From a virus: a stretch of 64,000 nt of DNA. This document shows, in pieces, positions 722 to 57,362 of this stretch (positions are counted from its first letter, which is position 1; the number at the start of each line of letters is the position of its first letter). Location: the IMG/VR virus record IMGVR_UViG_3300034102_002416. One strand, written 5' to 3'. The notes beneath the pieces were generated by a model. It was not told the DNA's origin. It saw only the letters and a list, made by a program, of their open reading frames with translations, and made no database searches. Made by a program: the position numbers and the translations under genes.

Positions 722-3700
722 TCAAACATGATTAATCTGGCTGAATCCGTCGATTTTATTAACTTCAATTAAATTGTCTACCATATCTCGCATAGAATCA
801 ACATGGCTGATAATAATAGAAAAGTCAAATTTAGTTCGAAAATAATCAAATAGATTTACTACTGCAGAAATATGTTCTGCATCCAATGATCCCCATCCTT
901 CATCTATTGCAATAAAATTTGGTCGTGGTAGTGCAGATACATTGATAAGTGCTATTCGAATTGCTAATGATGATATAAAACGTTCCATACCACTTGTTAA
1001 TTCCAATGGCCAAAAATTATCTTCATCATAAATAATGTATCCATTGATATTTTTACCATCACTTTGCAACACCATATTAAAATCTACAACCTGATTTAAA
1101 ACATTGTTTATTTCAGTTTCTATTTTCGGCATTGCTTTAGAAATTAATTCATATGGAATTCCATCTCGTTTTACCGTTTGTAAATAGTATTCATATGCTT
1201 TATATTCTGTTTCTAATTTATGATATGCATCTAAACTCGTCAATGCAGATTGTTTATTTGTTTTTGCAACTTCTATAGCACCAAACAGTGATTTGATTTG
1301 TGTTTGAATAGATTTTATTTCCTCAGTAAATGCATCGATATCTTGTTTACATTCAGTAATTTTTTCATCAATTGTTTTATTATGAGTTATAGCAGTTTCA
1401 TTGTTTCGGAATAATTCTTGCCGTTCCAAACAAGTTTCAAGTTCTGATTCTTTAGTTTGCAGTTCATTTTCTGCAATCTGAAGTTGCAATTCTAATTTTT
1501 CTACAGCACTTTGTTTGGTTTGTAAATTGGTTCGAAGTGTAATTAATTCAGCATATCGTTGTTCATATTGTTGAAGCAATTCAATTTCAGCATTAATGTC
1601 TTGTTTAGTGGTTTGTAGTCCTGTTAATATGTTTCTATCCGAATCGATTGTATTTTGCGCTTCGATTGCATCTTGTACAAAAACGTTAGATGTACAATAT
1701 TTGCATTTCGGATCATATTCATGTTCGGCAAGATGATTAATTTTTTCTTGTTTAGCATTTACAACTCCTTGTTGTTTGTCAATTTGAGTTTCAATTTGTT
1801 TGAGATTGGTTTTAAAAATTTTCAATTGGTCCAATTGTTCTAATAAACCAGGTTCATCATAAGTACGAATTTCTTTTTTAATCGTAACATGTTGTGTTTT
1901 TAAATCTTCTAAAGTTTGTTCTGATTGATCGATATTATTTTGTAAGTCATCAATTTTTTCTGTTAAATCAGATTCAGTTTTTCGTAATTTTGTAATATCT
2001 GGTCCATCATATGTTGTTGGTAATTTTGTTTCAATTAATGATACGATTTGATTTTGTAAATAATTTCGTCTTTCTTGAAACTCATCTTCTTGTGTTTCTA
2101 ACGTTTGAATAGTTCCATGATTTGCATTTATTATGTTGTCTGTACTAACAATTATTTCAGCAAAATCTGTTTTCTTGTATTCTTTTAATTTACCAGCAGT
2201 TTCTTTAATTTCATCTGCAGCAAGTTGATATAGTTGTTCAAATACCGTTATGTCTAAAAACTGCGATAATAGATCTTTACGTTCTCTTTGTGATTTTTCT
2301 ATAAAATTGTTGTTATCAGCTTGAAGTGAAAATGCAGTTAAAATAAAATCATCATATGTTCCTAAATACCTACGAATCGATTTATTTGTATCACTTCGTT
2401 CTTCTCCATTTAAATTTTCTGTGTCGGTATAAAAATCTACCAAAACTTTAACATGACCATTTTTTTGTTTAATACCATTACGTTCGATAATGTATTTAAC
2501 ACCATTCATTTCAAATGTAAATTTACCTCGGAATGTAGCTTTTTTATTATTTAATACTTCATGTGCTTTGCCTGTTTTGCTGCATTTATCAAAAATTGTA
2601 TATGTAATTGCATCGAGTAAAGATGATTTACCAGATGTATTTGCTGCAAATAATCCACATACATCCTGCATGTTTTCGAAATTAATAACATTGCCTTCCC
2701 CATATGAAAACATGTTATCAAATTCAAATTCAATTGGATGCCAAGTCATATGACGAACAGATTCGATAGCTGGTAGTTTAGAATTAATTGTTCGGTTAAT
2801 GTGTCGAATTGCATCTGTTTCCTCCGATGTTGCTTGTGGAAAATTAACTGCAATGTAATCTGTTATCAATGTGTTTTGATATTCAACATCTCGTACGTTT
2901 CCTATAGTAAATGATGAAGAAGCTTCATTATGAATTGAAGTAGAGTTTCGCTGTATTGTGATATCCTGTACATCATATTTTTTTCGAATAGCAGCAATCA
3001 TTTTTTTCATATCAGCTGCACTAGTGTCGGAAAATTTAATACGAACTCGGGGCTTATTCGGAATACGTGATGGTGCGTTAATAACTGTGGTGCCTTGCAC
3101 ATCGAGTGTTACATATCCATAATCATTGTGTATTGGAACAAACTTTGCTGAACGATCTGGCAAATCCCATACTAATATTCCGTGATCTAATGCTTCACCG
3201 TGATTTTGTTGAATTAATGATCCTGGATATGCAATTGTTTGTTTATCATCTAAGAATTGTGCCGGCTTATGAATATCGCCTAGCAATGTAATATCATGAC
3301 CAGCAAACAAATCGATTCCAACATGCTCATTAGATATTTGATAACCAATATCAGTACGAGCAGAATTCACAGCTCCATGATGTAATGCAATTTTATATGC
3401 AGCTTCGAATTGATCAGCTCTAATATATTCAGTTGGTGCAACATCAACAGCCATGTGATTGAATACAACATTAGCAATTTGAAATAATCCATTCTCTTTA
3501 ACAAAAATAATGTTAGGATTCTTAATAACATTGATTATTGGACTAACCGCATCCGTTCGATGCATGTTGTTTAAATTCATGTCATGATTACCTAAAATAA
3601 CAACCGTTGGTATCATGAATCCTTCGAAGAACTCAACAAGTATTTCTATTAATTCCGGAGACATATCTAATTTACTATGAACTATATCACCGGTAACAAC

Positions 3701-39136: not shown

Positions 39137-39256
39137 GATTATACCTTATTATTATACTATAATAAATATATGCACCGCATATTCTAATAAAGAGCATCTA
39201 TATAGCAAAATTTTTACCCGTGCTAGAAAAACATATATAACCTCCTCCATATATCA

Positions 39257-39371
39257 GGGGGTGTTCTACCCCTTAATGAAACCCTCCCCCACCCCCCTGT
39301 TTTGGGGGGGCTACCGGGGTCAAATACGGGGGGGCTATACCCCATGTAAATAGGGGGGCTACCTACCCCCC
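39257..39371. repeat. G/C homopolymer element with 3x G6-7CTA at ~24 bp period
   Basis: GGGGGG(G)CTA at 39304, 39328, 39353; C-tracts able to pair with them; non-coding. Confidence 0.75.
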
Positions 39372-39399
39372 TTTCTAGACTCTATATATGTATGGAATG

Positions 39400-39612
39400 C
39401 TATTGTGGCAACACTCCTTCTGCTATGCAGTCACTCATTCCTAATGACGGTATGCCTAATGCAGTTCTCAATTCGAATACCGGACCCCAAGCATTGCGGC
39501 TTATCGCTGTCACCACGTGGTCCTCTCCGAATGTCTTCTTGTCGGCTTGAAGTGTTTGCCATGCTCGGGCTTCTGTGATTTGGATTGCTCGGATTAACTC
39601 TTTCTTTGTCAT
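39400..39612 (-). CDS. Small early hypothetical protein
   Basis: AAAAGAGAGAGTATG leader. Confidence 0.55.
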   Translation of the reverse strand: MTKKELIRAIQITEARAWQTLQADKKTFGEDHVVTAISRNAWGPVFELRTALGIPSLGMSDCIAEGVLPQ

Positions 39613-39718
39613 ACTCTCTCTTTTATTTTTTATTAACTTGAACTCCTAGGATAAAACCTACAATTAGGCCTATTGCTAACATTGCTGTTTCTATATGCAT
39701 CTCTCTCGTTATATATTA

Positions 39719-39922
39719 TTACTTACCTAATGCCTTTAAGCATTCTGCGCACCCTACTTCTTCAATGCCGGCAAATAATGCGTGATTGCTGCTTAATGCT
39801 GGAGTACCACATACATTGCCTTTGCCTAATTGGTATGCGTGTGCCGTGCCGGTCCACACATTGCCTTTGTTACCAAAGATCATAAATCCTGCGCCTAATT
39901 CTTTTACTGCTACTTTTTTCAT
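39719..39922 (-). CDS. Small Cys/His zinc-binding early protein
   Basis: AH..VCG..GCAEC; cassette promoter at 39920-40005. Confidence 0.6.
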   Translation of the reverse strand: MKKVAVKELGAGFMIFGNKGNVWTGTAHAYQLGKGNVCGTPALSSNHALFAGIEEVGCAECLKALGK

Positions 39923-40016
39923 ATCTCTTTCTTTTAATTTTATAATATAAAGATAAGGATAATAAGTACACGTGTCAACCTTTTTCCAAGAAAAGTTTAA
40001 ACTTTTTTTCAGCAGA

Positions 40017-40066
40017 AATCCGACACCATTTCTGATGCCGGATCCTTATTTGAGAGATATGTTTAC
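40017..40066 (-). ncRNA. Anti-leader + GNRA hairpin RNA motif, copy A (3' UTR)
   Basis: GUAAACAUAUCUCUCAA then AUCCGGCAUCA-GAAA-UGGUGUCGGAU. Confidence 0.55.
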
Positions 40067-41017
40067 TTATTCTGCTGCGATGATTTGTTCTGCTATCATC
40101 TCCTCCGGATTATCAAATCCCATTGCGCATATTCTTGCTGCTTTGATAAAGCTTCTGAGGTTAACATCGATGCCGGCAAATTTGCTGTCTAGACGTTTCA
40201 TAATCTCTAATGCTTGTTGCTTTGCTGCTATTGGAATGCTACGCTCCATGCCTTCCATCAATTGCTCCATTCGAGTAAACATCTGAGTGGTGTTCATTGT
40301 GATGTCTGACACAAAGCTACGTGAACGAATTGCCTCATCTAATTTGCTTTGATGGATGTTGGAGATGAATATGATGCGACCTGTAAACTCAAAGTGTGGT
40401 GGGATTGGATCGCCGTACTCATCCTTAAGTGGCTTGCTAGAGATATAAGATATCTTGCGTGTGTCATAGCTGTCTAATGCTGCCTTAAGGATATTAACTG
40501 CATCGTCATCTTTGAATACGGAGTCACAGTCATCCAACACAATAATCTTATCCGAATTTTGATACAAGGTAATAAACAATCCGGCTGCTGTGGCACGACC
40601 TTTGAAGTGAACAAAGTCTTTGGATTCTGTAAGACCCATTCCTTTAAGAGTCTCTTTAACTAAGTGTGTCTTACCTACACCTGCCATACCTGTGATAACT
40701 AATGAAGGCTGAATACCTCTACCTACCATCTTAGTAAGACGCTCCAGGTTGCTGAACATTACTTGTGGATCTCTGCCTTCGAGTACTGTCATGAAAGACA
40801 TCTTTGCTGGTGCTGCTGGTGCTACGGCTACTCCTGCCATGGCTGCTGCTACTCTGCTTACTCTGCCGTTAGCGCTTACCATTAATACTTCTCGGTTAGC
40901 TTCTGCCGTGCGTAATTGCACATCGCGGATTAAACCCTTTGGCGCGAACTCTCCTGACTTCACATTCTTCGCCATTAACTTGCCTTTTACTCTTACTGCT
41001 TCAAATACATTCATCAT
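40067..41017 (-). CDS. P-loop/AAA-type ATPase
   Basis: Walker A GMAGVGKT; Walker B IIVLDDCD; FTGRIIFISN; AIRSR. Confidence 0.85.
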   Translation of the reverse strand: MMNVFEAVRVKGKLMAKNVKSGEFAPKGLIRDVQLRTAEANREVLMVSANGRVSRVAAAMAGVAVAPAAPAKMSFMTVLEGRDPQVMFSNLERLTKMVGRGIQPSLVITGMAGVGKTHLVKETLKGMGLTESKDFVHFKGRATAAGLFITLYQNSDKIIVLDDCDSVFKDDDAVNILKAALDSYDTRKISYISSKPLKDEYGDPIPPHFEFTGRIIFISNIHQSKLDEAIRSRSFVSDITMNTTQMFTRMEQLMEGMERSIPIAAKQQALEIMKRLDSKFAGIDVNLRSFIKAARICAMGFDNPEEMIAEQIIAAE

Positions 41018-41105
41018 ATCTCTCTCTTTTTAATTTATATAAAGATAAGGAAAAAAACCCTTCGTGTCAACCTTTTTGGTAACTTTTTTTAAGAAAAGTT
41101 TCCGG

Positions 41106-41360
41106 CTATTCTTCGCCGGCTACTTCCTCATGTAGATCCAATAACCACTGACGATTCATCATCTCTTGCTTGTATGTCTTAACACAATACAATTCAAATG
41201 GAGCAATCGGATCCTCTGATTTGAACTCGACATGGAATTCATCCCATACCTTGCGTGACTCCTCAAAGGTTGCTAATACATCCGCTGGAGCTATGTCTAA
41301 TTCATACTGCTGAACGATCCCTCTGGTTAACTCTCCCTTTACTGTTACATTTACTTTCAT
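41106..41360 (-). CDS. Small early hypothetical protein
   Basis: Cassette promoter and leader. Confidence 0.6.
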   Translation of the reverse strand: MKVNVTVKGELTRGIVQQYELDIAPADVLATFEESRKVWDEFHVEFKSEDPIAPFELYCVKTYKQEMMNRQWLLDLHEEVAGEE

Positions 41361-41574
41361 ATCTCTCTCTTTTTAATTTATATAAAGATAAGGAAAATAA
41401 GAACACGTGTCAAGCATTTAGGTAACTTTTTTTAAACTTTTTTTACGCCGACGGTAAGAAGGATTGTGGTTGGAATTAGACCTAATAGGCCAATACAGTT
41501 ACCAGTTGCTACTAATGCAAGTCCGGTGATCAATGCTAATACTGATGTTGTTTCTTTCATATGCTCTCTTTTTT

Positions 41575-41632
41575 ACGTCCGCAAGGGCCAACATTGCTGC
41601 TGACCCGGGACTATGTTGAGAGATATGTTTAC
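41575..41632 (-). ncRNA. Anti-leader + GNRA hairpin RNA motif, copy B (3' UTR)
   Basis: GUAAACAUAUCUCUCAA then GUCCG-GGUC-AGCA-GCAA-UGUU..GGCC..CGGAC. Confidence 0.55.
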
Positions 41633-42063
41633 TCTTCTGGGTCGCCGTCGATTACTTCTTCGTCTTCGGCTTCTTCATCATCTTCATTGCGCTCCAACTC
41701 TACGACGTCGTCAGTTTCAACTTCCGCCTCTTCCGGCTCCTCAACGAATCTTTCTAAGGAGGCAGTGACATGATCCATTATTTCCCTCATATTGACGTCG
41801 ACACTATTTAATTCGATTCGGTTATCATAAGTCAACTCAAACTCCGCAGAATCTACATCAATCAAGTCTCTGCTATTATAATCCAAACTTCGTTCAATTC
41901 TATTAGCAATCTCTTCAGCAAAGTCTGGAGTCAATTTGAAATCCTTCTCAACGATAACTACCGGCTCGATGCTTTGGATCAATGCAATAACATTGTCAAT
42001 GCTTACTACTGAGGTTAGCGCCTTTGCTCCCTCCAACTGTGCAATTAAATTTTCTTTTGTCAT
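41629..42063 (-). CDS. Acidic early protein
   Basis: Start MTKENLIAQ after GAGAGAT leader; D/E-rich tail. Confidence 0.65.
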   Translation of the reverse strand: MTKENLIAQLEGAKALTSVVSIDNVIALIQSIEPVVIVEKDFKLTPDFAEEIANRIERSLDYNSRDLIDVDSAEFELTYDNRIELNSVDVNMREIMDHVTASLERFVEEPEEAEVETDDVVELERNEDDEEAEDEEVIDGDPEE

Positions 42064-42149
42064 ATCTCTCTCTTTTAAATTTATAATATAAAAATAATGA
42101 ATTAAATAATGCGTGTCAACCTTTTTTGAAACTTTTTTCAAACTTTTTT

Positions 42150-42341
42150 TTACTTGGATTTGCAAGGGCAAGATTCAGAGTGAACCACTCCTCCATCGTA
42201 ATGGTTACCATCAAATGATAGGTACTCATGTCCTTCGAATTTAATAACCTGAATCGATCCGCCGTGATAACTAGTCTCCGGGTTTCTTTGTGATGTACAT
42301 CCTACCAATGCTACTGCTAATGCCAATGCTAATGTTTTCAT
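42150..42341 (-). CDS. Small lipoprotein
   Basis: Lipobox LVGC; GGVVHSESCPC. Confidence 0.65.
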   Translation of the reverse strand: MKTLALALAVALVGCTSQRNPETSYHGGSIQVIKFEGHEYLSFDGNHYDGGVVHSESCPCKSK

Positions 42342-42413
42342 ATCTCTCTCTCTTTTAATTTTAATAAAGATAAGGTTTTAATCAATGCGAGTCAACCTTT
42401 TTGGTAACTTTTT

Positions 42414-42578
42414 TTATCCGAAGAATCCTCCGGCATAAAGGATCCAAATAAAGATTGCTGCATCAATTAGCTTAAAGAATATGTTATACTTGTCGGTTCT
42501 CGGTTGGCCATGCTTATAAGCATTTAGTAATAATCCGATACCTATCATTGTCAATAAAATAATTTGTGGTGTTCCCAT
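42414..42578 (-). CDS. Small two-TM membrane protein (54 aa)
   Basis: Manual translation MGTPQIILLTMIGIGLLLNAYKHGQPR...ILYAGGFFG. Confidence 0.6.
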   Translation of the reverse strand: MGTPQIILLTMIGIGLLLNAYKHGQPRTDKYNIFFKLIDAAIFIWILYAGGFFG

Positions 42579-42586
42579 ATGTCCTA

Positions 42587-42709
42587 TTAATTAAAAATTA
42601 CTGAATAAATAAATGCATTACCTGCCAACGTCTGCTGCAGACGAATCATTTCGATTTGCTGTACCTGCTTCTTTGCGGTGAGCCTTTTAAAATTGCCTTT
42701 TCCTTTCAT
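42587..42709 (-). CDS. Small early peptide (40 aa)
   Basis: MKGKGNFKRLTAKKQVQQ...; directly follows a cassette promoter. Confidence 0.5.
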   Translation of the reverse strand: MKGKGNFKRLTAKKQVQQIEMIRLQQTLAGNAFIYSVIFN

Positions 42710-42791
42710 ACCTCTTATTTTTTATTATACTTAAAGATACCGATAATATCAATGCGAGTCAACCTTTTTTATAAAAAAGTTTCAGAAAAGT

Positions 42792-43532
42792 TTATAGGTA
42801 TTGTTCTAGCAATTCAATGCCCGGTAGCTTTGCTAATTCGGTTTCTGCCTGGCGAACCAATTGTCTAGCTCTCTCTCCGGTTACTCCCATCTCTTCAGCA
42901 ATCTGATCCATACATTGTGGATACTCTTGTCCGATGCCGTAGAATCTGCGTATAGCTTCTTGCTGCTTCGGTTTAAGTTGTGATAAGGCTCTGTTTAAGT
43001 CATAACGGAGATCTTCTGTGTCCCGGGCTGTTTTCACACTATCCGCAGCCAAGTATCGGTCCGCATAGGTTTCTTTGTTCTCGTCATCACCTACCGGAGT
43101 GTGGATTGATTTGATGCTTTGCTCCTCAGTTGCTACTCGATGTGATGGGATCCTAACTACTCTGGATAAGTCATTCAATGCCTTCTGCAATTCGGCTCTA
43201 ATGTACCACACAGCAAATGTAATGAACTTAACACCTTTTGTGGGATCGAATCTCTCAGCCGCTTCGAAGAGTCCTATGTTAGCAAATCCGATAAGATCCT
43301 CCAATTGTAATCCCATTCCTTGATACTGCTTTGCTACTTGCACCGCGAATCGGATATTAGCTTCCACTAACGCATTAACTGCTTTGCGGTCTCCGGATTT
43401 GATTCGGCCGGCTAACTCTTGTTCCTGCTGCCGGGTTAAGGTTGGGAGCTTCTTAATGTCTCTTAATAACTGATTGGTGCTTTCTGCGGTTGCTACAATT
43501 GCTCCGGTGCTTACATGAATTCTTTTTGCCAT
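42792..43532 (-). CDS. RpoD/SigA-family sigma-70 factor, compact (no region 1.1, most of region 3 missing)
   Basis: Region 2 ANIRFAVQVAKQYQ..EDLI..IGL..AAERFDPTKGVKFITFAVWYIR; RVVRIP; region 4 IAEEMGVTGERARQL. Confidence 0.92.
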   Translation of the reverse strand: MAKRIHVSTGAIVATAESTNQLLRDIKKLPTLTRQQEQELAGRIKSGDRKAVNALVEANIRFAVQVAKQYQGMGLQLEDLIGFANIGLFEAAERFDPTKGVKFITFAVWYIRAELQKALNDLSRVVRIPSHRVATEEQSIKSIHTPVGDDENKETYADRYLAADSVKTARDTEDLRYDLNRALSQLKPKQQEAIRRFYGIGQEYPQCMDQIAEEMGVTGERARQLVRQAETELAKLPGIELLEQYL

Positions 43533-43577
43533 AACTCTCTTGTGTTTTTAAATAAATGAATAACTGAATGCAACCGA

Positions 43578-43775
43578 CTACTTGCCGGTTGCTAAGAACT
43601 TGAATGATACTCGGATCGGTTTCTCAACCCGTGCCCGGTACTCTGCGTTGCGCGCTCCTTGCGTAATAGCTTGTGCTACTGTTACGGCATTGCCTCCGGT
43701 TCTTGCATCTCGACTCATTTGAGCCATTACTGCTCCTTGTCTTTCAAATCCTGAATTTCTTCCTTTTTTAGCCAT
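43578..43775 (-). CDS. Small basic early protein
   Basis: Cassette promoter at 43773-43862; probably co-transcribed with the sigma gene. Confidence 0.55.
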   Translation of the reverse strand: MAKKGRNSGFERQGAVMAQMSRDARTGGNAVTVAQAITQGARNAEYRARVEKPIRVSFKFLATGK

Positions 43776-43861
43776 CTCTCTTATTATTTAATTTCTATAC
43801 TTAAAGATAAGCATTTTATCAATGCGTGTCAACCTTTTTGTTAACTTTTTTTACTTTTTTT

Positions 43862-44047
43862 TTATAAAGGATCCACAGTGTCATCAACTACAAATCCTAC
43901 AACACTTTCTAGGTACTGCTTAATATCCGTGTCGTCAAATCCATCTGCTAACAAATCCAGTGTGACGTAACGGATTGCGTCTTCCAACTTGTTTGCGACA
44001 GTGCTATTAACAAGTCCCTCAATTCTCTCAAATTTTTCAAAATCCAT
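43862..44047 (-). CDS. Small acidic early protein
   Basis: Cassette leader. Confidence 0.55.
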   Translation of the reverse strand: MDFEKFERIEGLVNSTVANKLEDAIRYVTLDLLADGFDDTDIKQYLESVVGFVVDDTVDPL

Positions 44048-44128
44048 TTTTCTCTCTTTTTAAATTAATACTTAAATATAATGAAAATAATAATGCGATC
44101 CTAATAAAATGTAAAAAAAGTTTGCTGG

Positions 44129-44506
44129 CTAACTTAAGCCAACAAACCCTTTCTCTAATTCCAACTCTAACTCCTCAGCTATATCCTTAAGTCGGTAATA
44201 AGCAGCATCATCTAATTCCTGCATCACTCTATCTACTACTTGGTTAACATCATATCCTGATCCAAACCCGTAACATGTAACTGCTGTCTGGATTCTTTTT
44301 AACTCATCACTTGCACTAACCCAATCTGCTTCAAGCATTTGATCATTATAATCAAACTCTTTGCGGAACTCTGCCATGGCAGAAATCCAAAGCTGCTTAA
44401 CTTTGATTCGAACCACTACGGCTACTGCATCATTGTGGTCATACATATCGCGGCTCCATGGCTTTGTGATTTGGATTCCGTACTCTACTTTTGCTACCTT
44501 TTTCAT
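44129..44506 (-). CDS. Early hypothetical protein
   Basis: Cassette promoter and leader. Confidence 0.6.
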   Translation of the reverse strand: MKKVAKVEYGIQITKPWSRDMYDHNDAVAVVVRIKVKQLWISAMAEFRKEFDYNDQMLEADWVSASDELKRIQTAVTCYGFGSGYDVNQVVDRVMQELDDAAYYRLKDIAEELELELEKGFVGLS

Positions 44507-44589
44507 ATATCTCTCTTTTTAATTTATATAAAGATAAGGTTTTAATCAATGCGTGTCAACCTTTTTCTGAAAAAAGTTTAAAAAAAAGT

Positions 44590-44799
44590 TTATTCTGATT
44601 TAAAGATTTTGTTATAGTGATCTTCAAATGTATCACCATGAACTGTTGTCCATTGACCATGATTGTAAAACTTCCCTAGCTGTTGCTTCTCCATGGCTTT
44701 AGCTTGGTCAATAATTAATTGCCTATCAGTCATATCTGCAAATTTCCATTTAGATGAATTAACCTGTTGTGCAAACCATTCTATTGCTGTCTGTTTCAT
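44590..44799 (-). CDS. MKQTA(I/V)EW-family small protein
   Basis: MKQTAIEWF..AKAMEKQQ..FKSE; paralog at 51594. Confidence 0.6.
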   Translation of the reverse strand: MKQTAIEWFAQQVNSSKWKFADMTDRQLIIDQAKAMEKQQLGKFYNHGQWTTVHGDTFEDHYNKIFKSE

Positions 44800-44896
44800 A
44801 TCTCTTATTTTAAAAAATCTTTAGCTATTACTATGATTATTGCAAACGTGATTAAACCTGTGGCTACTACTAATACTATCATACTCTCTTTTTAAA

Positions 44897-45052
44897 TTAA
44901 TATCCAATCAAATCACACAACATCTCTCCCGTGCAACGGCCATTCCGGGTAATTTCATAATTAGGATCCATGCCGGATGCTGTCACATCGCTAATCAACT
45001 CAGACAATGAGGTAAACTCTTTCTCGTAATAAACACAATCTAAACTATACAT
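44897..45052 (-). CDS. Small early protein (51 aa)
   Basis: Manual translation MYSLDCVYYEKEFTSLSELISDV...; cassette promoter. Confidence 0.55.
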   Translation of the reverse strand: MYSLDCVYYEKEFTSLSELISDVTASGMDPNYEITRNGRCTGEMLCDLIGY

Positions 45053-45126
45053 ACTCTCTCTTTTTAAATTATAATCTAAATATAAGCAAAAAAGAGATGC
45101 GTGTCAAGCATCTCTGTAACTTTTTT

Positions 45127-45426
45127 TTAACTTATTTCCTCAACTCTAAATTCAATCACTTCATTTAATATTAAACACATTTCGCCATCTTCATCATAAA
45201 TACAACCTTCAATCATATCATCACTCCACTCAGGAAAATTGCCATTCTCATCAACACCACACCACCACTCAACCAAATCCTTATTGCTATAACAATATTC
45301 AGCCAACTCTTCATTCTCTCTAACCTTATCAACTAAATCCACCAAATCCTTAGCCATTACATCAACAACTAAAAATGCTTCATCACCATTAAAACCATCT
45401 GCTAAACTTACTCTAAACTCTCTCAT
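45127..45426 (-). CDS. Very acidic 99 aa early protein (DNA-mimic candidate)
   Basis: Start MREFRVS; 28 D/E versus 7 K/R; cassette leader. Confidence 0.65.
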   Translation of the reverse strand: MREFRVSLADGFNGDEAFLVVDVMAKDLVDLVDKVRENEELAEYCYSNKDLVEWWCGVDENGNFPEWSDDMIEGCIYDEDGEMCLILNEVIEFRVEEIS

Positions 45427-45499
45427 TTTCTCTCTTTTTAAATTAATACTTAAATATAAGGATAATTTCGATCGGATCCTAATTTTTAGCAAACTTTTT

Positions 45500-45703
45500 T
45501 TAAACTTTTTCAATTACGGTAACTGGTACATTAGGATTCATGCCATAATAACATTTAATATCGATATCCTCTAATTCGACGATACGTGCATTTTTTCTAG
45601 TTTTTACTACTTTTGCCCGTATTAATACATCCGGTTTTGTATCCCAAGCAAATTGTACAATTTGTCCTTTTGCTACAGTTCCTAATATTACTAAGTTTTC
45701 CAT
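45500..45703 (-). CDS. Small SH3/KOW-like protein, paralog 1
   Basis: KGQIVQFA..RAKVVKTRKNA. Confidence 0.6.
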   Translation of the reverse strand: MENLVILGTVAKGQIVQFAWDTKPDVLIRAKVVKTRKNARIVELEDIDIKCYYGMNPNVPVTVIEKV

Positions 45704-45779
45704 ATATCTCTTATTTTTTAATTTATATAAAGATAAGCAAAATACTTATGCGTGTCAAGCATTTTTTAAAAAAGTTTAA

Positions 45780-45971
45780 CTAAATATTAACTATAGTAAC
45801 TAAGCTATCAGCTGGCATTATGGTCCATCCGATATCATTAATATTTTCTAATAGTACAGTAACTGCATTTTTCCTTGTTTTTATTACTTTTGCACGTCGC
45901 ACCATATTAGGATTACTCATTGCAAATTCAACTATTTGTCCCTTTTTTACTGTTCTAACTTCTACTTGCAT
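45780..45971 (-). CDS. Small SH3/KOW-like protein, paralog 2
   Basis: Start MQVEVRTV; KGQIVEFA..RAKVIKTRKNA. Confidence 0.6.
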   Translation of the reverse strand: MQVEVRTVKKGQIVEFAMSNPNMVRRAKVIKTRKNAVTVLLENINDIGWTIMPADSLVTIVNI

Positions 45972-46065
45972 ATCTCTTATTTTTAAATTAATACTTAAAT
46001 ATAAGTAAAAAAAGTGCGCGGACCAAATTATCCACACACTTTTTTACGATTTTTTTTATATTTTT

Positions 46066-46383
46066 TTAAACTTTGTTACGGAGCATTTTCGCGCGCAACC
46101 TGTCTATTAATTTAATATAGTCATTTATATTTGCATCATAATATTCATCACGTACAAAGTCGTTATTCCAAAAGTTTAAATTATAATCTCCGATGAGCCA
46201 TCGGCGCTTGTCGCCTGCTTTACGCATCGCATACTGTTTTTCTGCTACTTTTTGTGCTAATGCTAAAACTCGAGGATCTTGCATATCGAGGCTTAGTAGT
46301 GTTGTTTCATCAGAATCTTCAGATAAATTCTTTGTTTTAAAACGATGCATATTCTCTGCAAGTATATTTCGATTCGTTGTCAT
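46066..46383 (-). CDS. Late protein with ILAENMHRF tag
   Basis: Start MTTNRNILAENMHRFKTKNL; late box at 46402-46409. Confidence 0.6.
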   Translation of the reverse strand: MTTNRNILAENMHRFKTKNLSEDSDETTLLSLDMQDPRVLALAQKVAEKQYAMRKAGDKRRWLIGDYNLNFWNNDFVRDEYYDANINDYIKLIDRLRAKMLRNKV

Positions 46384-46417
46384 ATTACTCCGATGTTTTA
46401 AATAAATATATAAACAG

Positions 46418-46725
46418 TAAAAAAGGACCCGGGAATAAGAGAGAGAAACCCGAGTCCCTACACGATTCACATCGCCTTACCTAAATCCGATCCGCCGGGA
46501 GTGTCTTGCGAGCACTACGATCCCGGACCCCGTCGGTATATTGAGAGACATGTTTGCAATACAAAGGCCCGGAGGTGTTAGCAAGTTGTGCTCCGTAGTG
46601 CTCTGATGCTTGTGGTTACCGGGCCTAATCGATCCATGTTTTATCGCGGGATGAATCTTTCCCATATCTTTGTTCGTGATCCTTCTGGCCGCCTTAAGCA
46701 TTTGGTTGGATCAACCTTCCTTCTT
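46418..46725 (-). ncRNA. About 300-nt structured non-coding RNA candidate with intrinsic terminator
   Basis: GC-rich island; stems AGGCCCGG/CCGGGCCU, CCGGGA/UCCCGG, GGUUG/CAACC; 10-nt complement 46510-19/46594-603; terminator GGACUCGGG..CCCGGGUCC-U6; TATATTTG at 46731-38. Confidence 0.65.
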
Positions 46726-46754
46726 AATTACAAATATATAATATGAAAACTAAA

Positions 46755-47432
46755 TCTAAAAACCAACCGTATCTAAAAATAAATCTAAAAATACATCTAA
46801 AAATAACGTGATATTGGTCTAAAAATCGTCTAAAAATAGCCTGTTCGGTTACTCCGTATAGCTAGCAAAGCAAAAGAAACCGGCCCAAAAGTGCTACTTT
46901 TCTAAAAATACGTCTAAAAATCAAACCGGATATTGAGCTAAAAATCGACTAAAAATAGCGGATTCATCTAAAAATAGCCGGGGAGCATCAGATATCCATC
47001 TAAAAATAAACCTGACAGTTACTCTGTATAATTAGCAAACCGAACGTATACGCACTATAAGAACGAATACAGGTTACTCCGTATAGCTACAGAATCGAAC
47101 TAACCGATTTCTCGCCAAGCAATAAACCCTATTATTAACCCGAAAAATAACACCGATACCATCATACCTCTTTAATTTAATTACACTTTAAATATAAGAA
47201 GAATTCGCCACATATCCAACCAAAAGCAAAAATCAATCTAAAAATAGACCAAAAAGGTTGGATATTACAAGACACAGTATACGCACATATAACACGGTTT
47301 ACAGTGTAACGGATATCAGTAATCCAGGCGACCCGTAATAAAGAGTCTATGCCCCCCGTATTAGTTGTATAGGGAGGGAGATATATATAACCTATCTGTC
47401 TGGATGCTACTAGACACCATTTCGTCTAAAAA
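46755..47432. repeat. Iteron-like array: 14x (T)CTAAAAA and 3x GTTACT(C)YGTATA; candidate origin or terminus region
   Basis: Copies at 46755, 46772, 46784, 46796, 46818, 46829, 46901, 46913, 46937, 46948, 46967, 46999, 47237, 47425; GTTACTCYGTATA at 46848, 47018, 47073. Confidence 0.8.
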
Positions 47433-54632: not shown

Positions 54633-54797
54633 AAATTGGTAGAGATTTGAGCACCAACGCATGATCACCCATACGTCTCGTTTCTTGTGTATTCGGCACT
54701 CTACCGTTGCAAGTTCATCTTACCTTGCGCCCCCATTCGTGGAATTATCCGACATCCCAATGAGTTTTACCGTACTATCGGAGTCAGGTAACCGCTG

Positions 54798-54869
54798 TAG
54801 TCGGTACGGGATTCGAACCCGTGTGACAAGAATGAAAATCTTGTATCCTAACCCCTAGATGAACCGACC
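54798..54869 (-). tRNA. tRNA-Glu(TTC)
   Basis: GGTCGGT/ACCGACT acceptor; CAAGA-TTTTCAT-TCTTG anticodon arm; ACGGG-TTCGAAT-CCCGT T arm. Confidence 0.92.
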
Positions 54870-55157: not shown

Positions 55158-57362
55158 TTATCTGATAATTGTTATGTGACCATAATCGTTGTAACGAGCA
55201 TCATTAACTGCATCACCAAATGTTAATTTCCATATGTAGATGCCTTCGGATACATATCGACCATTATAAGTCCCATCCCATCCCGTTAACATGTCACGCG
55301 ATTCCCATATTAATTCTCCCCAACGATTGTATATTTCAAGTTGGAAATCATATGCATCGAATCCTGCAGTAAATACCGGTTTCCATGTTTGGTTGAATTC
55401 GTCGCCATCTGGTGTAAAAGAGTTTGGCATATAGTAAATAGTTTCTGGACAATTGGCAATTGATATGGTTGTTTGTTCTGGTTCTGATACACATCCGTTA
55501 GACACATGCACGGCTGTTAATGTGTAAATTCCTTCTGTTTGCCAGGTGAATAATGGAGCATTTAATAGAATAGTATCGTTTTGAAAATACCATTCGGTGG
55601 ATCCTGGTACTGATGGTACTACCAAATACATGAAGGTTACGGAGTCTCCATCACATATTTGATAAAACTGATCCGATGTTATGTCTAAAATAACAGGTTT
55701 CTCATTCACTTGCACTGTGATGGTATCATCAAACACACAACCACTCTGCGTATATGTATAAACTACAGCATTTGCAGCGGTATCAGCTATACCCGGACAG
55801 AATTCATCGATGTTAACTCCTGGTCCAGAATATACTCCATTGAGTGGTAATGCGGTTAATGGCACACAGTCTGAATCCGTACAGAAAGGTCCAATTTGGT
55901 CAATTTGTGGTTCTATGTTCAATACAAACAAATCAACTGACACTAGTGCACTTTCACAACCATTGGCATCCGTTGCAATAACATTAACTGCATTTGAAAC
56001 CAATCCTGCTGCAGTATTAGTCCAATCCACAACAACGGCTGTCGATCCTTGGCCAAAGGTTATGTTGCCCGAACTATTCCATGTATATGAAAATCCGGTG
56101 CCTAAATCGGCAACAGAATATATTTCAGCATTTGCTTGAAAACATGCGGTATCACTGAATACAATAGGTCCGACAATAATAGGTGGAGGATCTGTTAGTG
56201 TAACATTAGTAGTAACATCACATCCGGCAGCATCTTCAATTTCGACTGTGTACGTACCAGCACATAGGCCTGTGATAGTTGATGTTGTTTGTCCCGTAGT
56301 CCATGTATATGTATATCCTGGAGTTCCATTTAATGGTGTTACTGTGATCTCTCCATTGCAGTCTCCGATACAAACCGGATCCGACACAACTACATCTGGT
56401 GCTGATAAGTTAGGCGGACCTGGTTGTACAAACACAGTATCTGGTCCTAATCCTATAATTGCATTGCAAGAATTCCAACCGGTGTTGCATGCCGGATAAA
56501 CTAGTTGGCAAGTATAATTTGCACCCGCTGCCGGTGGCGTAACAGTGATTGTGGTTCCTTGGCCTATAGGCACGGGATTGCCAACTAGATACCATGTAGG
56601 TACCGGCAATACAGCAGGGCCAGCTGGCGTATATCTCCAAGCATCATTGTTTGCCGTCCACTGTGTTGAATTACGTCCTGGTACTGTTACTGCTGCGGTA
56701 CCTGCTTGATTATGTACTCCCTGCACTGCAGTTCCACCAGCCCATTGTAGACAGTTTGGTTTGCTTTGAATATGATTTTCAATGACATTGGTTGACTCGT
56801 AAATTACAATATGAAATGTTCCTATAGTAGATGTGCACGAAAACATTGGCATATTTATCCAACTCACTACCAGTTTGCGACATGGAGCTGTGCCCTGAAC
56901 TTGATATCTGATCTGTCCTCCGATACCAGGATGCCAATCTTGCCATGGTCCCATAATGCAGTTCCTAGGAACATTTGCAGCTGCACTAGGAATTGGGGTG
57001 GATGTGAACGTAGTAGGCTGTGCTGCAGAGAATGAGATCCATCCATTAGATCCTACCCAAAACTGTGTATATGTTTGTCCATAAAAACAAAATGTGAATC
57101 CTATATTGAATGGTCCTTGTTGAGAATCATCGGACATGGACAATTGAGTGCCCGTGTTGGTCTGTGCGGCATATTGAATATTTGTAACTCCATAATTAGT
57201 TGTAGAGTTAGGATTACTACCGGGTGTGCATTGCGAAAAATCTGCAGTTAATGTGGTTGAAGAAACCCCACATGGTAATAACTGATCAGGACCTAGTGCC
57301 GGACAGTACTGAGTATATGCAGTGCCACATAACAACATCATGTATAGTAATAACCGTTTCAT
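55158..57362 (-). CDS. T9SS type-B sorting-domain (gliding motility-associated CTD) secreted protein with SprB-like repeat
   Basis: Signal peptide; C.GDCNGEITV..GTPGYTYTW..GLCAGTYTV..DAAGC; C-terminal YMPNSFTPDGDEFN..IYNRWGELI..GWDGTYNG..GHITIIR. Confidence 0.9.
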   Translation of the reverse strand: MKRLLLYMMLLCGTAYTQYCPALGPDQLLPCGVSSTTLTADFSQCTPGSNPNSTTNYGVTNIQYAAQTNTGTQLSMSDDSQQGPFNIGFTFCFYGQTYTQFWVGSNGWISFSAAQPTTFTSTPIPSAAANVPRNCIMGPWQDWHPGIGGQIRYQVQGTAPCRKLVVSWINMPMFSCTSTIGTFHIVIYESTNVIENHIQSKPNCLQWAGGTAVQGVHNQAGTAAVTVPGRNSTQWTANNDAWRYTPAGPAVLPVPTWYLVGNPVPIGQGTTITVTPPAAGANYTCQLVYPACNTGWNSCNAIIGLGPDTVFVQPGPPNLSAPDVVVSDPVCIGDCNGEITVTPLNGTPGYTYTWTTGQTTSTITGLCAGTYTVEIEDAAGCDVTTNVTLTDPPPIIVGPIVFSDTACFQANAEIYSVADLGTGFSYTWNSSGNITFGQGSTAVVVDWTNTAAGLVSNAVNVIATDANGCESALVSVDLFVLNIEPQIDQIGPFCTDSDCVPLTALPLNGVYSGPGVNIDEFCPGIADTAANAVVYTYTQSGCVFDDTITVQVNEKPVILDITSDQFYQICDGDSVTFMYLVVPSVPGSTEWYFQNDTILLNAPLFTWQTEGIYTLTAVHVSNGCVSEPEQTTISIANCPETIYYMPNSFTPDGDEFNQTWKPVFTAGFDAYDFQLEIYNRWGELIWESRDMLTGWDGTYNGRYVSEGIYIWKLTFGDAVNDARYNDYGHITIIR

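Follow-up and report, generated by a model that had tools for sequence, protein, structure and literature searches.

Candidate antisense control of early genes by leader-complementary RNA seeds in a large phage

The early cassette array and its seeds

The stretch of viral DNA analysed here (IMG/VR record IMGVR_UViG_3300034102_002416; 64,000 nucleotides (nt), hereafter the window) is part of a large myophage and encodes, among others, a baseplate wedge protein, an SbcC-like nuclease, a thymidylate synthase, GroEL and a sigma-70 factor. Complete relatives of this phage range from 159 to 197 kb. A type IX secretion signal domain, promoters resembling the Bacteroidota consensus used for comparison (PMC6847099) and a homologue in Flavobacterium phage immuto_2-6A point to a Bacteroidota host. 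Comparison of the ATPase, the sigma factor and GroEL revealed no cultured close relative; the cultured immuto_2-6A was reached through homology of an acidic protein. Between about 39.6 and 46.0 kb, the minus strand carries an array of early promoter-gene cassettes whose promoters contain TATCTTT or TATATTT and whose A-rich leaders mostly end in AGAGA, 0-4 further bases and the ATG. The subject of this study is a set of short elements, termed seeds, that are complementary to these leaders.

A GAGA motif lies at most 13 nt from the start codon in 13 of the 17 promoter-linked starts, and the exact leader GAGAGATATG precedes four genes (42341, 42063, 41360 and 41017). A preliminary description had most cassette genes beginning with variants of one start sequence. 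It had also noted a triplicate 15-mer, and AAACATRTCTCTCAA is indeed found at three exact sites, all on the minus strand (40050-40064, 41616-41630 and 46541-46555, the last being one base away from the position first given), and in none of 100 dinucleotide shuffles. Its designation as the reverse complement of the leader applies to the central 10 nt, CAT(A/G)TCTCTC; the flanking AAA and AA are not complementary. We refer to these three copies as seeds 1a, 1b and 1c. A fourth element, seed 2, was missing from the initial list of copies; it is the most constant seed among relatives and often occurs within two tandem hairpins (Table 1).

Each copy of the 15-mer is followed by a hairpin, with the GAAA, GCAA and GCAA loops originally reported; the second stem, that of the acidic-protein gene, starts with GUCCCGG instead of GUCCGG. 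The proposal of a single three-copy unit of anti-leader, (G/A)UCCGG stem and GNRA loop was not supported. The third hairpin corresponds to module C of a predicted long RNA, is kept in relatives without this seed (L013, L014, L016 and L017), and is not homologous to the other two, which are located in 3' untranslated regions (UTRs); the three do not constitute a single family. In relatives, the two 3'-UTR types interchange between genes. The stems of the ATPase 3' hairpins vary yet remain paired across 50 relatives, and GNRA loops, though common, are not universal, capping 41 of 50 distinct ATPase 3' hairpins. What is conserved is the seed; the hairpins are replaceable. The hairpin past the ATPase gene was not called in a terminator scan of the window.

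Table 1. Features of the cassette array and of the RNA at its head (window coordinates).
Feature	Position	Strand	Remarks
Early promoter-gene cassette array	39600-46030	-	starts share (A)AGAGA...ATG; target set of the seeds
Phage sigma-70 family gene	42792-43532	-	own start region is a predicted seed target
AAA ATPase gene (PHROG 1250, T4 nrdC.10-like)	40067-41017	-	own early promoter and leader
Acidic protein gene	41629-42063	-	no assigned function; homologue in Flavobacterium phage immuto_2-6A
Anti-leader seed 1a	40052-40061	-	5 nt past the ATPase stop codon; pairs with the ATPase start in the predicted fold of the naked full-length mRNA
3'-UTR hairpin, GAAA loop, weak U tail	40016-40045	-	3'-end or terminator-like; fold z -5.1
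Anti-leader seed 1b	41618-41627	-	1 nt past the acidic-protein stop codon
Intercistronic hairpin, GCAA loop, without U tract	41577-41611	-	same hairpin type after the ATPase in other lineages
Start region of promoter-less small gene downstream of the acidic gene	41558-41570	-	possible cis partner of seed 1b (fold)
Anti-leader seed 1c	46543-46552	-	unpaired in the long RNA (probability 0.82); absent in several relatives
Anti-leader seed 2, TTTCTCTCTCTTATT	46434-46448	-	loop of the terminal hairpin; complementary to AATAAGAGAGAG
Putative standalone structured RNA, ~310 nt	46419-46728	-	heads the cassette array; 5' end placed according to the promoter
Module A, conserved 5' domain	46677-46720	-	GAUCC/GGAUC helix; possible pseudoknot
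Module B, covarying stem	46565-46626	-	conserved ACCACA / AACAC internal loop
Module C	46487-46536	-	third hairpin of the preliminary description
Terminal hairpin, U6 tail	46419-46458	-	intrinsic terminator by anatomy; fold z -3.4
Long-RNA promoter variant, TTG-N20-TATTATA	46737-46766	-	distinct from the cassette promoters

Covariation of seeds and leaders across relatives

Post-stop copies with at most two mismatches to the consensus number 82, of which 59 are exact, over 78 distinct ATPase loci and 51 loci of the acidic gene, and wherever the post-stop seed is found it begins 1-7 nt past the stop codon. The preliminary description had suggested antisense pairing with the shared early leader and had named covariation across genomes as one way to examine it, and retention of the same motif in relatives with a different leader as a refutation. 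Such covariation of seed and target, as expected for trans-acting small RNAs in general, is observed: relatives with another leader do not retain CAUAUCUCUC but carry the complement of their new leader. In relative L254, whose ATPase is 75% identical, the leaders read AAAACC(C)TAAAA or AAAACCCATG, the post-stop seed is lost at both genes, and the RNA at the head of the array displays GTTTTAGGGT and CCATGGGTTTT in two loops. A DNA-pattern search for further phages of this type returned no second head RNA, so that the switch in L254 is read from one RNA sequence; the search did turn up L317, whose leaders end in AAACACATG. There, CATGTGTGTTTTAA or a close variant follows three stop codons, each time upstream of a hairpin, and the copy after the acidic-protein homologue is a 22-nt complement. 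The same rule holds for L062 (356 kb), L023, L059, L051 and L292, each with its own leader. In immuto_2-6A, ATCAATAATTAA is present in 15 early leaders and its complement occurs once in 160 kb, directly past the stop codon of gene 136 and upstream of a U-tailed hairpin (72100-72111 in MW353175).

These lineages bear on the notion that GAGAGA serves as a Shine-Dalgarno (SD) sequence for a host with an alternative anti-SD (AUCUCAUU) and that the seeds mimic this rRNA end. Such an alternative, ASD2, is present in Chryseobacterium and Riemerella and has AUCUC in common with the seed (PMC7797042). The match abuts the AUG, though, and the sister phage L254 has no GAGA leader and other seeds. The seeds follow the phage leader and not an rRNA. 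L254, L317 and immuto_2-6A largely refute this explanation, which we consider extremely improbable.

An unbiased scan of non-coding sense DNA (figures are for Watson-Crick pairs, the version with G-U pairs being noisy) yielded a best match exceeding dinucleotide shuffles in 9 of 11 phages, with z-scores from -3.0 to -9.4. For seven of the 11 leader sets the phage's own DNA ranked first, and for two sets common to kin it ranked second or third. All 15 seeds bind the leaders of their own phage best, a result that is partly circular because they were chosen that way; their position after stop codons and in loops is independent of the choice. The lineages are few and some are kin, and we count them as about five independent leader types. 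Comparison of the genomes shows the seeds to be selected for complementarity to the leader of the phage that carries them.

Leader and seed together form an inverted repeat around two open reading frames (ORFs), and cassette arrays recombine, as described for PeSLs (PMC2839356). The motif might accordingly be read as a DNA site, either an operator or an inverted repeat for cassette shuffling, or as the start of antisense genes. We judge this very unlikely. The seeds sit in loops of variable stems, and their substitutions comprise 17 wobble-keeping transitions against one that breaks pairing (counted over rows representing about 10 events, with AT bias explaining part). Neither antisense nor complementary elements are mentioned in the PeSL paper (PMC2839356). 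ORFs opened by the ATG of the seed span 3-129 amino acids in three frames across relatives, and given this variation the seeds are not gene starts.

Several further arrangements were seen among the relatives. In L292 (4177-4209), L294, L050 and L052, two seeds, CATATCTCTAA and CTTCATATCC, are combined in one element and match the two leader variants of that lineage, AGAGATATG and AGGATATG. In two distant lineages that differ in their leaders (window 41629-42063 and L317:2989-3470), a post-stop seed accompanies the gene of the acidic-protein family, and each of these acidic genes lies near a different ATPase that also has a post-stop seed; the homologue in immuto_2-6A has none. Sequences that look tRNA-like by eye directly precede the seed in L009 (4100-4180), L296 (6100-6460), L006 (after the ATPase) and L295 (near 8200), and tRNA processing could release a seed RNA in those relatives. 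On the minus strand of immuto_2-6A (L324, about 3460-3600), an early-type promoter opposing the array drives a GC-rich, ORF-poor stretch, possibly a second non-coding RNA in a cultured phage.

The long RNA at the head of the array

The long RNA, which contains seeds 1c and 2, bears a conserved promoter-like site and a U-tailed hairpin. Rfam offers no match to it, either at the gathering score or with E relaxed to 10; in the whole window Rfam recognizes tRNA-Glu(TTC) only (54797-54869), weaker matches being attributable to chance. Compensatory changes were found in 14 of 37 predicted pairs (seven sequences; three conserved modules). All 19 head RNAs examined hold one to three seed units, usually in the loops of variable stems. 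Modules A to C may stabilize the RNA, bind a protein or serve a separate role.

A site of the form TTG-N20-TA(T/A)(T/A)ATA is present at 19 of 21 long-RNA loci, and the variant occurs one to five times per genome in four relatives. The consensus TATATTTG adjoins it in the window and is not kept by relatives. Since the TTT of the host promoter box is nearly invariant in Flavobacterium johnsoniae (PMC6847099), the promoter of the long RNA is either weak or read by another sigma factor. Outside the array, a second promoter class (TTGG followed by TATTAT or TATATTA) recurs on the minus strand at 46737-46766, 50681, 52632, 54329 and 25869; these are candidate middle promoters for the phage sigma factor.

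The ACCACA(A/G)G / AACAC internal loop recurs among relatives, where modules A and B (46565-46720) appear in shuffled order and outside Rfam. Twister-like and hepatitis delta virus-like readings of these two modules were dropped by eye, as the topology did not fit and Rfam gave no hit. Exact 10-bp loop-loop pairing was likewise discarded: relatives do not keep it, and only a GCAC/GUGC remnant of 4-7 nt persists.

Targets, pairing mode and relation to known systems

In the window, seed 1 binds promoter-linked starts with a mean energy of -9.3 kcal/mol compared with -4.3 kcal/mol for other genes (p=3e-5). Its best targets are array genes, including the sigma gene, and structural genes are mostly spared. 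Folding of full-length naked RNAs pairs seed 1a with the ATPase start (probability 1.00), joining the two ends of this mRNA, and seed 1b with the start of the downstream gene (0.99); seeds within the long RNA stay open.

These folds, together with the placement of the seeds 1-7 nt past stop codons, raise the question whether pairing is confined to cis, the 3'-UTR seed either closing its own mRNA, as in icaR, or keeping the gene that follows masked until a ribosome terminating there opens it, with no regulon-wide action in trans. For the ATPase copy the comparison among relatives points the same way: its seeds bind their own leader at -13.5 kcal/mol versus -12.5 for permuted leaders (p=0.0002, uncorrected), and in nearest-neighbour pairs the own leader is favoured 12 to 4 (16 informative pairs; p=0.038). 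We conclude that this copy is modestly tuned to its own start in cis. The acidic-gene seed, by contrast, is matched neither to its own leader (p=0.99) nor to the start downstream (p=0.48), and it is kept where the own leader cannot pair (L011 group, -1.2 kcal/mol) or where the downstream gene is absent. Translational coupling as a general role of seed 1b was rejected because no covariation with the downstream start was detected across relatives. In addition, the ORF-less RNA has no cis target, so its seeds can act only in trans, and among the loci read L254, L010 and L041 carry seeds nowhere else. A mechanism restricted to cis is therefore unlikely, and cis and trans modes probably coexist around one address. 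Both had been named in the preliminary description; trans action is now supported for the ORF-less RNA and the acidic-gene copy, and cis fold-back for the ATPase copy.

We propose antisense repression of early-gene translation by the leader-complementary seeds, with a probability of roughly 0.7 as judged from sequence. The phage would give its early mRNAs, transcribed by the host polymerase, a shared leader and produce RNA seeds complementary to it; pairing would extend from about -12 to about +3 relative to the start codon, thereby blocking loading of the 30S subunit. Two of the four seeds in the window would be supplied by the ORF-less RNA, which has a putative promoter and a putative terminator of its own, and two by positions just past stop codons beside a stabilizing hairpin. 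Strand, display in loops and position suggest that the seeds act as RNA, and the geometry of pairing together with what is known of initiation in F. johnsoniae suggests that initiation is repressed. The 3'-UTR seeds fall within the footprint of a terminating ribosome and would be accessible chiefly on messages that are processed or not translated. Two points favour repression: the AUG of the open, A-rich leaders lies inside the region paired by seed 1, and translation in F. johnsoniae is tuned by structure in the initiation region (PMC6847099).

Several observations weigh against antisense repression. Both 3'-UTR seeds pair in cis in silico, which would lower their activity in trans; the duplexes span only about 9-15 bp at a mean of about -11 kcal/mol, and a scan of ten array proteins identified no RNA chaperone. 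The post-stop seed is missing at about one quarter of the ATPase and acidic-gene loci. In the unbiased scan, L061 gave no signal and L254 was not significant, though its top two matches are its two loops. Finally, the immuto_2-6A seed covers the mRNA 5' end and not the AUG, so that control of stability is also possible. Pairing could then be real and yet affect mRNA stability or processing, through duplex cleavage or shielding of the 5' end, instead of ribosome loading. Most duplexes are short for RNase III, and in the clade of the window the seed is centred on the AUG, which makes this version improbable. Seeds of both immuto_2-6A and L317 do reach the inferred first nucleotides of the mRNA, and pairing in icaR creates an RNase III substrate (PMC3868564); an effect on stability is compatible with repression and not exclusive of it.

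The opposite effect, activation, would require the seeds to act as tethers that link phage leaders to a terminating ribosome, or to an RNA bound by ribosomes, and pass them on for re-initiation. The fixed position right past stop codons, the fact that seed 2 spares the AUG and the conserved modules of the long RNA, which lack an assigned role, would fit such a function. Against it, the pairing of seed 1 includes the AUG, the leaders, being A-rich and open, offer nothing to unfold, and no rRNA-complementary element was identified; we give activation very little credence.

Repression by the seeds might be part of a self-addressed timer of large Bacteroidota phages, an extension that we put forward only tentatively and hold to be rather doubtful. 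The phage would tag its early regulon with a private leader, the early sigma factor would turn on the structured RNA through the second promoter class, and post-stop seeds unmasked as translation wanes would join the loops of the long RNA in silencing the whole regulon, the sigma gene included. The weakest step is that the long RNA would be made later from the other promoter class, perhaps by the phage sigma factor, resulting in timed shut-off. If this were the case, the shared leader would be kept partly as an address for shut-off, beyond ribosome binding.

Among known systems, the Cuckoo RNAs (CcsR1-4) of Alphaproteobacteria (PMC8034643) similarly expose in their loops a pyrimidine-rich complement of ribosome-binding regions, have several units per locus and derive from 3' UTRs. 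Their loops represent a fixed anti-SD, CCUCCUCCC, in bacteria that use SD sequences, whereas the phage loops read UUUCUCUCUCUUAUU and CAU(A/G)UCUCUC, match a phage-specific leader, differ between lineages and may cover the AUG, in a host group that largely ignores the SD. The Cuckoo arrangement of at least two hairpins with single-stranded pyrimidine loops is seen in the window RNA (two units; one to three in 19 relatives). The Cuckoo Rfam model (CcsR, ar14) gave no match, whether at the gathering score or with E allowed up to 10, the context is a Bacteroidota phage rather than an alphaproteobacterial locus, and no DUF1127 gene was seen among the Pfam-scanned proteins, which did not include every small protein.

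C4 RNA of phages P1 and P7 (PMC5320573) is likewise phage-encoded and structured; its loops occlude a ribosome-binding site by pairing with mRNA of the same phage, and its specificity differs between phages. In the window, this likeness is one of complementarity. C4 differs in being released by RNase P as a ~77-nt RNA that serves immunity in temperate phages and has few targets, whereas about 15-20 early mRNAs share the target here; the long RNA has neither the three-stem C4 fold nor a match to any Rfam model. The icaR mRNA of Staphylococcus aureus (PMC3868564) carries a short motif in its 3' UTR that pairs with its own initiation region, blocking the initiation complex. Pairing of this 5'-3' type is predicted for the ATPase copy but not for the acidic-gene copy in the L011 group. 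icaR involves one bacterial gene, an anti-SD motif and a long UTR, while the phage seed abuts the stop codon, suits many genes and also occurs in a trans RNA. PeSL cassettes of T4-type phages (PMC2839356) resemble the array in their repeated units of early promoter, leader and small ORFan gene separated by stem-loops. They have SD leaders, polyG/polyC stem-loops within the promoter unit and no described antisense element; in the window the leaders are A-rich, GAGA abuts the AUG and most cassettes are without such a stem. PeSLs thus explain the array and not the seeds.

The phage system works like Cuckoo, C4 and icaR pairing and belongs to none of them. A literature search, which mostly did not cover subscription journals, turned up no report of a phage that marks its early regulon with a tag and also encodes the complement of that tag. 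On comparative grounds we regard the element as real, conserved and covarying, and as what appears to be a form of base-pairing translational control not found in the literature. Early shut-off in lytic phages is mostly explained by proteins. Antisense repression by the seeds, if true, would amount to an RNA-only, regulon-wide off switch in a host group that largely ignores SD pairing, and would explain the near-identical leaders of the early cassettes. The differences in leader and seed between lineages provide natural matched and mismatched pairs, and the same layout in the cultured pair immuto_2-6A and Flavobacterium sp. LMO8 (MW353175) makes the idea testable now.

Other features of the window lie outside the seed system. 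Many TTTTTAG repeats border the array on one side, and blocks of G/C runs on the other (46770-47430 and 39250-39380); the repeats recur in relatives and may mark an origin or packaging region. A 734-amino-acid SprB/PKD protein with a type IX secretion signal domain is encoded at 55158-57362. The box ATATTTAT has about 25 minus-strand sites in the window (for example 46409, 39169, 38010, 35965, 24795, 11569 and 722), many of them just upstream of non-array and structural genes, and is a candidate late promoter.

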